This document shows, piece by piece, positions 37,166-38,452 of a DNA stretch of 64,000 nucleotides; within the stretch, counting starts at the first letter, position 1, and each line of letters opens with the position of its first letter. Position numbers and translations under genes: made by a program. The stretch lies in the NCBI GenBank assembly GCA_035533595.1, contig DATLTN010000031.1, positions 14,363 through 78,362 on the forward strand. The letters run 5' to 3'. The notes under the pieces were generated by a model, which worked only from the letters and a program-made list of their open reading frames with translations, did not search any database and was not told the origin of the DNA. Origin of the DNA: Acidimicrobiales bacterium. GTDB lineage: Bacteria; Actinomycetota; Acidimicrobiia; Acidimicrobiales; Bog-793.

Positions 37166-38452
37166 TCACAGGTTGGCGAGCTCCGCAAGGCGCGCCGAGT
37201 CGACACCGTCGGCGAGGTAGTGCAGTGGTGCGCGGTAGGTGAAGCCGAAGCTCGACGCGACGAGGCGCGGGTCGGTGCTGCGCGTGAGCGCGGCGAGGCG
37301 GGTCGAGCGGAGCACCCGGAGCGAGACTCCGGCCGGCCTGAGGACGCTGCGGAGGTAGGTCGCTGAGACGGGGATGGCGTTCGTCGTCGTGAGCCGGGTG
37401 ACGATGACGTGGTGGTTCTCGGTGCACAACGTCTCGTGGTGCGCGAGGCAGGCGGCGAGCGCAGCCGTGGTGCGCGGATCGAGCGGCACCGGGCGCGGGC
37501 GGCGTCCGAGACGCAATGTGGATCTGGCGAGATCGCAGTCCTCGAGGACGAGGTTGCAAAGCTCGGCCGAGGAACAGCCGTGCAGCAGCCCGGCGAGGCC
37601 GACGAAGGACTCGTAGGGGTGGACGTCGGCGCTGCCGGTCCAGCGCTCGTAGAGGGCGCGCTGGCGCTCGAGGGGAAGGAGCTCGCTCGCCACGCCGCTT
37701 TGGCCTTTCGGTCCCTCGAGGCGCGCCGTCGGGTCGACGAGCACGAGCCGTTCGGCTCGGGCGAAGGAGAAGAAGCGATGGAGATGCGTGAGGTAGCGGC
37801 GGGAGACCGCCGGTGAGAAGGCGACGAGGAAGGCCTCGACGTCTCCTTCGGCGACGACTTCGAAGCCACAGCTGTCCCCAGTTCGCCTGGCGATCGCGAT
37901 CGCCAGACCCACGATCGCATCGAGGCGCTCCTCGGTGAGGTGGTGACGAGGGACGGTCGCCTTGAGGCGCTCGGCGCGCTTGCGGGCAATGAGCTCGGCT
38001 TCGACGAAGCGCTCGACGGCTGGGAGGAAGCCCGCCGGCGTCGCCACGAGTCGTCGCCTTCGCCGGAGCTCGGCTCGACGATCGCCTTCGTCCTCGACAT
38101 CGATCGGTGCGGGCCCGACCGTGGAGAAGAAGTCGCCGAGGCTGCGAGCGAGCGTCCCGCCGCGAGCCGTCGGTGACCGAGAAGCTCGAAGCAGCGATGC
38201 GGGATCGTTGCCCTCGCTTTCGAGCAGTCGGCCGAGGTCAGCGACGAGCCGAGTCGCACGCGAGACAGAGAAGCGCTCGGTCACGTAGGCGACGTAGGCG
38301 TCGAGGAACCCGGGGGGATCGACGAGGCGTCGGTGGAGGCCCTCGGCGCAAACGAAAGGGCGGTCGGGCTGGCGGCGCAAACACCGCGCGCACAACCCGT
38401 GTCCGGCGTGGGGCCTGAGCTCGCCGCACGACGAACAGGAGATGATCCTCAC
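37166..38452 (-). CDS. Zinc-ribbon protein with C-terminal tyrosine-recombinase-like domain that appears catalytically degenerate
   Basis: Frame of ORF 37166..38752, from GTG 38452 (GTGA overlap with the HTH stop). N-terminus VRIISCSSCGELRPHAGHGLCARCL (CxxC...CxxC). C-terminus ...GLLHGCSSAELCNLVLEDCDL...LRLGRRPRPVPL...LRVLRSTRLAAL...YRAPLHYL is alignable by eye to the recombinase boxes, but lacks Arg-I and the His residues. Confidence 0.6.
   Translation of the reverse strand: MRIISCSSCGELRPHAGHGLCARCLRRQPDRPFVCAEGLHRRLVDPPGFLDAYVAYVTERFSVSRATRLVADLGRLLESEGNDPASLLRASRSPTARGGTLARSLGDFFSTVGPAPIDVEDEGDRRAELRRRRRLVATPAGFLPAVERFVEAELIARKRAERLKATVPRHHLTEERLDAIVGLAIAIARRTGDSCGFEVVAEGDVEAFLVAFSPAVSRRYLTHLHRFFSFARAERLVLVDPTARLEGPKGQSGVASELLPLERQRALYERWTGSADVHPYESFVGLAGLLHGCSSAELCNLVLEDCDLARSTLRLGRRPRPVPLDPRTTAALAACLAHHETLCTENHHVIVTRLTTTNAIPVSATYLRSVLRPAGVSLRVLRSTRLAALTRSTDPRLVASSFGFTYRAPLHYLADGVDSARLAELANL

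Follow-up and report, generated by a model that had tools for sequence, protein, structure and literature searches.

A recombinase-fold protein with a non-canonical active site as the likely TnsF-like subunit of a minimal Tsy-type transposon inserted in an ISAzo13-family gene

The Tsy transposons have been described by Faure et al. (2023, Mol Cell 83:2122, PMC10293859) for ZooTsy of Zoogloea sp. LCSB751, whose transposition is reported to need a tyrosine recombinase (YRec), a helix-turn-helix (HTH) protein and TnsF, all three, and to be abolished by either of the mutations YRec-Y341F and TnsF-Y584F. According to the same account, the TnsF-like proteins of Tsy elements start with zinc fingers, which are followed by core-binding domains in tandem and a catalytic domain, and they bind and select the target; ZooTsy inserts site-specifically in the Walker-B-coding region of comM, has asymmetric and no canonical ends, and forms a circular excision intermediate, and the downstream gene for a GIY-YIG nuclease is an optional component, not essential and absent from some relatives. 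The subject of the present analysis is a gene for a 428-amino-acid (aa) protein within a 64,000-nt stretch of an Acidimicrobiales genome (contig DATLTN010000031.1, positions 14,363 to 78,362; hereafter the window, meaning this whole stretch), which a preliminary description had read as a catalytically dead recombinase-like protein. In family and in role, this protein very probably represents the TnsF-like component of a Tsy-type tyrosine-recombinase transposon of minimal gene content, and the best overall explanation, which adds a retained, non-canonical catalysis to this assignment, is moderately favoured when taken as a whole.

The three open reading frames (ORFs) of the element, encoding in this order the canonical YRec, a small Xre-like protein of the HTH_26 family and the TnsF-like protein, are arranged head to tail on the minus strand with overlapping stops and starts, the GTG start of tnsF-like overlapping the stop of the HTH gene by 4 nt, and tnsF-like comes third in an operon whose genes are translationally coupled. 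The same order is kept at about 80 actinobacterial genome loci, with tnsF-like present in every complete element, and in the proteobacterial Tsy loci (L093-L096), which bears out the earlier proposal that the protein partners the intact recombinase encoded two genes upstream. The alignment of family profiles with hhalign matches the actinobacterial family to the proteobacterial Tsy TnsF-like proteins (20 sequences, in which the Tyr at position 584 is invariant) at a probability of 99.6%, with an E of 1.6e-24 and 400 aligned columns; beginning at the last zinc ribbon and reaching as far as the tyrosine, the match covers the helical region in between, places Y412 on Y584, R318 on R482 and H291 on Y458, and indicates that these proteins are homologous end to end. 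The proteobacterial loci, reached via the HTH protein of ZooTsy, contain comM fragments, YRec, HTH, a 603-aa TnsF-like protein and GIY-YIG, and the ZooTsy HTH protein itself, translated from the plasmid table of PMC10293859, shares 35% identity with that of the window (E 4e-10). In addition, Data S1 of that paper (TNSF_vin.csv) includes long-form members of the actinobacterial family (WP_071376986.1, QIX53886.1, RGP48684.1 and OIV39424.1) among the TnsF homologues, with 'yrec' and 'hth' as neighbours.

The likeness to ZooTsy extends from the operon of YRec, small HTH_26 and TnsF-like genes to the architecture of the TnsF-like protein (one or more N-terminal ribbons, a long helical region for core binding, and a catalytic-type domain in which the Tyr is conserved, with homology over the full length), to the site-specific insertion that splits a conserved motif-coding region without canonical inverted repeats or evident target duplication, and to the variable cargo that related copies of the window element carry between tnsF-like and the far end. 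The differences concern the target, which is the ISAzo13 transposase gene in the window or the IS21 istB gene in a larger clade, and not comM; the nuclease gene, which the window element does not have; and the size of the TnsF-like protein, which has one ribbon here, whereas the ZooTsy type has several ribbons and about 600 aa. Target choice is here treated as a variable, not a core, trait of Tsy membership, and the window element counts as a Tsy-type element of a minimal kind, with one ribbon, no nuclease and targets of a new class. The pairing of YRec with a TnsF-like protein, which had been regarded as unusual in the preliminary description, was already published in 2023 (PMC10293859); the ISAzo13 and IS21 istB targets are new, and no report of Tsy elements directed to insertion sequences was found in a limited literature search.

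Other known systems resemble the locus in part. The TnsF of Tn6022-type Tn7-like elements (orf3/TniE) falls in the same superfamily in the tree of PMC10293859, combines zinc fingers with recombinase-derived DNA-binding domains, and is described there as selecting its target at a conserved, motif-encoding position of an AAA+ gene; nevertheless, its partners are TnsABC and TniQ, and its catalytic domain no longer includes the part with the tyrosine, whereas the window protein has a complete domain including the Tyr, a tyrosine recombinase as partner, and an element in which neither the ORF list nor the Pfam scan revealed Tn7 genes. In XerC/XerD and in TnpA/TnpB/TnpC of Tn554, two different recombinase-fold proteins are likewise needed together, but both partners are canonical, there is no zinc-ribbon selector, and no HTH_26 gene lies between the recombinase genes. 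Tn554 carries out site-specific transposition without terminal repeats or target duplication. By description, its two canonical recombinases are followed by a small protein, whereas the window trio has its small protein in the middle, and its second protein of recombinase fold is non-canonical; no sequence match of the TnsF-like protein to the Xer or Tn554 proteins beyond the shared fold was found, and no direct comparison with the Tn554 proteins was made. The RIT elements (three canonical recombinases), BIM and Tn554-type pairs (PMC3414803) were considered and rejected, as were the GMT integrases, for which only a chance-level NCBIfam match was obtained, and this on the partner YRec.

The element carries the three genes and no cargo, and it ends 49 nt beyond the match to the TnsF-like protein. 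Its junctions are GTCGACAC|ATCCGG... and ...GCGCTTT(G)|AAGAAGAAG, and the flanks rejoined across it read VISVDT|KKKELIGNY, the ISAzo13 transposase profile (Pfam PF07592) being split exactly at position 96|97; one base per junction is ambiguous, and no target duplication is evident. There are no long terminal repeats, and only 10-bp subterminal arms are found. The arm of the left end, GGCACAGGTTC, is kept as GGCACATGTTC at the same distance from the tip in 26 loci, is the inverse of the inner arm of the right end, and probably constitutes a recombinase binding site. The right-end motif, CACACGTT-GGCC-CGAACGTGTGCGCTTT, terminates the element in 73 loci and may provide paired binding sites. A reading of the right-end hairpin as a mere terminator was rejected, given that conservation extends to the sequence as well as the structure in clades whose TnsF-like proteins share 43% identity, and is further disfavoured by the recurrence of one of its arms at the left end.

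In terms of the genes themselves, the six catalytic residues of the window YRec (R196-K224-H299-R302-H325-Y334) are kept in 66/66 homologues, with the exception of the Tyr (65/66). The N-terminus of the TnsF-like protein is VRIISCSSCGELRPHAGHGLCARCL, and the closest homologues use the same start, their N-terminus being MKTISCSSCGE...; a longer, upstream-extended frame of 528 aa, which overlaps the HTH gene and has no support from these homologues, was discarded.

The distribution of the trio is patchy, with 5 of 401 genomes of the phylum containing it. It is found in Streptomyces, Mycobacterium/Mycolicibacterium, Kitasatospora, Nonomuraea, Nocardia, Pseudonocardia and Kribbella, among other genera, and it occurs on 63 plasmid records, where it is annotated as 'site-specific integrase' beside a 'helix-turn-helix transcriptional regulator'. 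The five members of the window clade (the window and four relatives) all sit at the VDT|KKKE position of diverged ISAzo13 genes. The larger actinobacterial clade uses a single site within the part of IS21 istB that codes for sensor-1. The insertion point is common to about 60 distinct flanks and lies 12 nt away from the codon of the sensor-1 Asn and 3 nt away from that of the Trp; antisense istB codons border both tips, |(G/E)W... ahead of the left one and, in these flanks, ...(S/T)N-x-x-(F/P)-x| after the right one. Over a stretch of 3.3 kb, a Mycolicibacterium genome and a Williamsia metagenome-assembled genome (MAG) are 100% identical, while the surrounding IS21 differs by 4.5-8%, and elements of 93% identity occur in unrelated istB lineages; from these comparisons the insertions at the istB site look independent.

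Some further observations concern the relatives. An element of about 3.26 kb is 100% identical in Mycolicibacterium chlorophenolicum, M. pyrenivorans, the Williamsia MAG and a Nocardioides MAG contig (loci L029:1464-4760, L030, L031 and L032), which points to very recent horizontal spread across the four hosts. In many Streptomyces copies, a single small cargo gene is found between tnsF-like and the right end (L035:5741-6169; also L022, L026, L027, L046, L054, L056 and L081), whose product of about 125-140 aa has two CxxC pairs (MT.FSC..CQQRISPDLREVPMPPP...) and no Pfam match. In several Streptomyces and Kitasatospora copies (L034, L038, L041, L048, L049, L052, L066 and L072), YRec is recovered by tblastn in two or more pieces, reflecting frameshifts or insertions, with the TnsF-like match still full-length. 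On one metagenome contig (L005:2392-5648), a Tn554-like pair of recombinases of 364 and 721 aa, both matching Phage_integrase, is located just downstream of the tnsF-like gene. Finally, in a proteobacterial genome (L093:1-8522 and L094:1-5257), a classical Tsy element (YRec-HTH-TnsF-like-GIY-YIG) stands back to back with a Tn7-like tnsA-tnsB-tnsC-tniQ system, and both of these adjoining systems use TnsF-type selectors.

Regarding the structure of the TnsF-like protein, the AlphaFold2 (AF2) model, built on an alignment of 33 sequences, has a mean predicted local distance difference test (pLDDT) value of 84.9, and its first 45 Foldseek matches in the PDB are all tyrosine recombinases, XerA (5hxy) being the top match at 2.5e-6, followed by Tn1549 Int, lambda Int, XerH, IntI and Cre. 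The model thus clearly points to a tyrosine-recombinase fold with core-binding and catalytic domains, whose possible absence had been considered in the preliminary description, and its two successive five-helix bundles may be read as tandem core-binding domains, CB1 and CB2, with approximate, model-derived boundaries. The similarity is much less apparent at the level of primary structure: Pfam gives no match at E <= 1 for the protein or for its 528-aa extended frame, the NCBIfam XerD/XerC models reach an E of about 1e-4, far below their cut-offs, and single-sequence phmmer against the PDB yields a marginal hit to XerA (E 0.43). The N-terminal CxxC...CxxC zinc ribbon recognized at the outset is a family feature, its four cysteines being conserved in 127-152 of the 156 family sequences, with a shortfall due to truncated N-termini in some of them; most relatives have three or more extra ribbons upstream (PF18912), up to four in all.

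The catalytic positions were mapped by aligning the family profile with XerA (E 0.0043) and, as a second mapping, by hhalign against the partner YRec family, whose probability of 2% is too weak to establish homology; the two mappings agree. The Arg-I position corresponds to Ser294 in both; the beta-hairpin bearing the catalytic Lys is about 7 residues shorter and has no alignable Lys, the invariant Arg318 being situated at the second Lys/Arg position of GKGxKxR; Arg379 takes the place of His-I and Phe404 that of the LGH His (His-II/Trp), and Arg382 and Tyr412 occupy the Arg-II and nucleophile positions. Four of the six canonical catalytic residues are therefore missing, and Arg-II and the Tyr are kept, which confirms, far beyond chance, the earlier reading of the recombinase boxes by eye, in which Arg-I and both His appeared to be replaced while Arg-II and the Tyr might remain; that mapping was right in outline, but the placement of Arg-I at 'LLHGCSS' was loose, the aligned residue being S294, with an invariant H291 three residues earlier. 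Across the 156 sequences, position 294 is S in 127, T in 20, A in 6, N in 2 and P in 1, and never R or K; position 379 is R in 104 and K in 42, and never H; position 382 is R in 155; position 404 is M in 130 and H only once; and position 412 is Y in 149 of 151. H291, R318 and R385 are invariant, and E297 is almost so. This survey of homologues, which had been suggested as a check, shows that the pattern of substitutions is fixed, and the non-canonical pocket is in our judgement a fixed trait of the family and not the result of decay.

The ratio of nonsynonymous to synonymous substitution rates (dN/dS) of the TnsF-like protein is 0.14-0.27 in ten independent pairs, indicating purifying selection, and with values of 0.24 in the catalytic-type domain versus 0.18-0.23 in the DNA-binding part, the former is as constrained as the rest of the protein. 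On the other hand, this protein has the highest dN of the trio in every pair, two to four times that of YRec, and between the window clade and the istB-targeting clade identity is about 61% for YRec, 68% for HTH and 43% for the TnsF-like protein. A special acceleration in the window clade was considered and rejected, the protein evolving faster than its partners in every pair. This fast divergence fits, and does not prove, a role of the protein as selector; together with the homology to the target-selecting Tsy TnsF-like proteins, it makes plausible the earlier suggestion that the protein could determine target choice.

By analogy with ZooTsy (PMC10293859), YRec, HTH and the TnsF-like protein would together release the element in circular form and integrate it again at a specific site. 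The zinc-ribbon and core-binding part of the TnsF-like protein would read the target DNA, a conserved motif-coding stretch in a gene of another transposable element, and the protein would recruit or pair with a YRec bound to the short inverted arms near the element ends. Tyr412 probably still serves as nucleophile in one pair of strand exchanges, with assistance from Arg382 (Arg-II), Glu297 and the relocated invariant residues Arg318, Arg385 and His291. The prediction of a retained, non-canonical catalysis is preferred by a small measure; its most detailed form, in which Tyr412, Arg382 and the relocated Arg318, Arg385 and His291 make up a rewired working site in a protein that itself reads the IS21 istB sensor-1 and ISAzo13 VDTKKKE motifs, is more tentative and falls somewhat short of even odds. 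A precedent is provided by the CTnDOT integrase, in which a downstream arginine functionally substitutes for the missing Arg-I (PMC8138268, citing Kim et al. 2010): as in the TnsF-like protein, IntDOT has a Ser at the Arg-I position and a conserved arginine downstream, and R318 or R385 may stand in for Arg-I in a similar manner, although IntDOT keeps Lys, His-I, Arg-II and His-II, and no sequence relationship between it and the TnsF-like family was detected. The alignment of Tyr412 with the reportedly essential Y584 of ZooTsy leaves the description as 'catalytically dead' unproven and probably wrong, and the constraint on the catalytic-type domain likewise speaks against taking it as established.

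Several observations weigh against this explanation. By the canonical rules, a protein such as the TnsF-like one, with no Arg-I and no alignable Lys, should be severely impaired. Mutagenesis of Cre (PMC2943603) showed a strong dependence on Lys and on the arginines: strictly required are the tyrosine and the lysine of the beta-hairpin alone, and for each arginine a single substitution is tolerated. Most of the pocket residues are not common to the two branches of the family, Arg382 aligning with Phe552, and Glu297 with Lys, Arg or Ser, in the proteobacterial one. The effect of Y584F in ZooTsy was read out as transposition, no covalent protein-DNA intermediate being shown in the account of PMC10293859, and the role of that tyrosine may be structural. 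AF2 confidence near Tyr412 is low (pLDDT ~54). As for mobility, one full copy each is present in five checked genomes and in the genome of the window, and in the window clade co-inheritance with the insertion sequence may also account for the shared site.

The principal alternative is that the TnsF-like protein is truly non-catalytic, binding DNA (the target, the ends or both) and positioning the canonical YRec for all of the chemistry, in which case YRec might exchange one strand pair only and the Holliday junction be resolved by replication; XerD plays an architectural role of this kind in CTX-phage integration. The same missing residues, Arg-I, the Lys hairpin, His-I and His-II/Trp, absent across the 156 sequences, are in its favour, as are the lack of any match to Pfam Phage_integrase, the requirements of Cre, the higher dN in comparison with YRec, and the related TnsF of Tn6022, which is described as an accepted case of an inactivated recombinase and as purely a target selector (PMC10293859). 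However, the retention of Tyr412 in nearly all members, at the position whose mutation is reported to abolish ZooTsy transposition, is not readily accommodated by it, nor is the conservation of Arg-II, Glu297 and three invariant basic or His residues in a domain whose constraint equals that of the DNA-binding part, and the inactivated TnsF of the Tn7-like elements has lost the tyrosine-bearing part that is preserved here (PMC10293859). A purely DNA-binding role is therefore regarded as rather unlikely, and retained catalysis by the TnsF-like protein as the better account.

A second alternative, that the gene is what remains of a second integrase, vestigial or on its way to becoming a pseudogene and without function at present, any movement being due to YRec alone, could invoke the degenerate active-site motifs, the lack of a Pfam match and the frameshifts in several Streptomyces copies, even though these affect YRec; yet it is strongly disfavoured and highly improbable in view of the intact and translationally coupled frame of 428 codons, the dN/dS values in the ten pairs, the many positions invariant over 156 sequences from many genera, the presence of tnsF-like in every complete element, and the reported need for TnsF in ZooTsy (PMC10293859). 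Least probable of all is an unrelated zinc-finger integrase of another mobile element, or a regulator, placed beside YRec-HTH by chance, which has no specific support other than the tendency of mobile-element nests, such as that of ISAzo13 and IS110 here, to juxtapose unrelated genes, and which is contradicted by the 4-nt overlap with the HTH gene, by the order shared with some 80 loci and the proteobacterial Tsy elements, and by the element ends that flank all three genes.

The assignment to the Tsy type provides a correct name, that of a Tsy-type transposon with a TnsF-like subunit, for a gene family to which annotation pipelines give the label 'hypothetical protein' or 'site-specific integrase' across hundreds of actinobacterial genomes and plasmids, from Streptomyces, Mycobacterium and Rhodococcus among others. 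The Tsy-type selectors break the R-K-H-R-H/W-Y rule family-wide and yet keep the tyrosine, and a textbook assumption on recombinases thereby becomes testable. Tsy-type elements are not bound to comM; those described here enter the best-conserved coding motifs of other insertion sequences, precise to the codon, a kind of site that entails no host cost and from which the element can travel when the insertion sequence moves. Sister clades with sharply different targets, differing mostly in one subunit, offer a natural start for mapping how the selector reads DNA. If the explanation is true in its most detailed form, with a rewired working site, these elements would represent site-specific 'transposons of transposons', in which a rapidly evolving selector subunit, a recombinase in its own right, determines the target range.

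Table 1. Positions in the window of the element, its genes, ends and flanks, and of the domains and key codons of the TnsF-like protein.
Feature	Positions	Strand	Remarks
Whole Tsy-type element	37120..39960	minus	~2.84 kb; YRec, HTH and tnsF-like, no cargo; inside ISAzo13-family transposase gene
TnsF-like protein gene (gene under study)	37166..38452	minus	428 aa; zinc ribbon, helical core-binding region(s), divergent tyrosine-recombinase catalytic domain
Small HTH_26 (Xre-like) protein gene	38449..38763	minus	104 aa; Pfam HTH_26 1.4e-9; overlaps both neighbour genes
Canonical tyrosine recombinase (YRec) gene	38753..39847	minus	364 aa from first GTG; Pfam Phage_integrase 7.9e-22
N-terminal zinc ribbon	38375..38452	minus	aa 1-26; C6, C9, C21, C24; AF2 strands at residues 3-5 and 12-14
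Two successive five-helix bundles	37754..38365	minus	aa ~30-111 and ~122-233; AF2 secondary structure
Catalytic-type domain	37169..37690	minus	aa ~255-428
Codon of H291	37580..37582	minus	
Codon of S294	37571..37573	minus	
Codon of E297	37562..37564	minus	
Codon of R318	37499..37501	minus	
Codon of R379	37316..37318	minus	
Codon of R382	37307..37309	minus	
Codon of R385	37298..37300	minus	
Codon of F404	37241..37243	minus	
Codon of Y412	37217..37219	minus	
Left-end subterminal arm	39940..39950	minus	GGCACAGGTTC; 10 nt inside left tip
Right-end motif	37120..37147	minus	CACACGTT-GGCC-CGAACGTGTGCGCTTT; imperfect palindrome, then GCGCTTT at tip
N-terminal part of disrupted ISAzo13-family transposase gene (left flank)	39961..40517	minus	PF07592 positions 1-96, E 9.8e-34
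Middle part of same ISAzo13 transposase gene (right flank)	36702..37119	minus	PF07592 positions 97-229, E 2e-63

The ISAzo13 gene (34921-40517) has been cut twice, by the Tsy-type element and by an IS110-family element, whose transposase lies at 35266-36633, and its last fragment is found at 34921-35202. The G+C content is 0.66-0.68 over positions 32001-40000, which comprise this nest of mobile elements and genes to its left, versus 0.70-0.77 elsewhere in the window.

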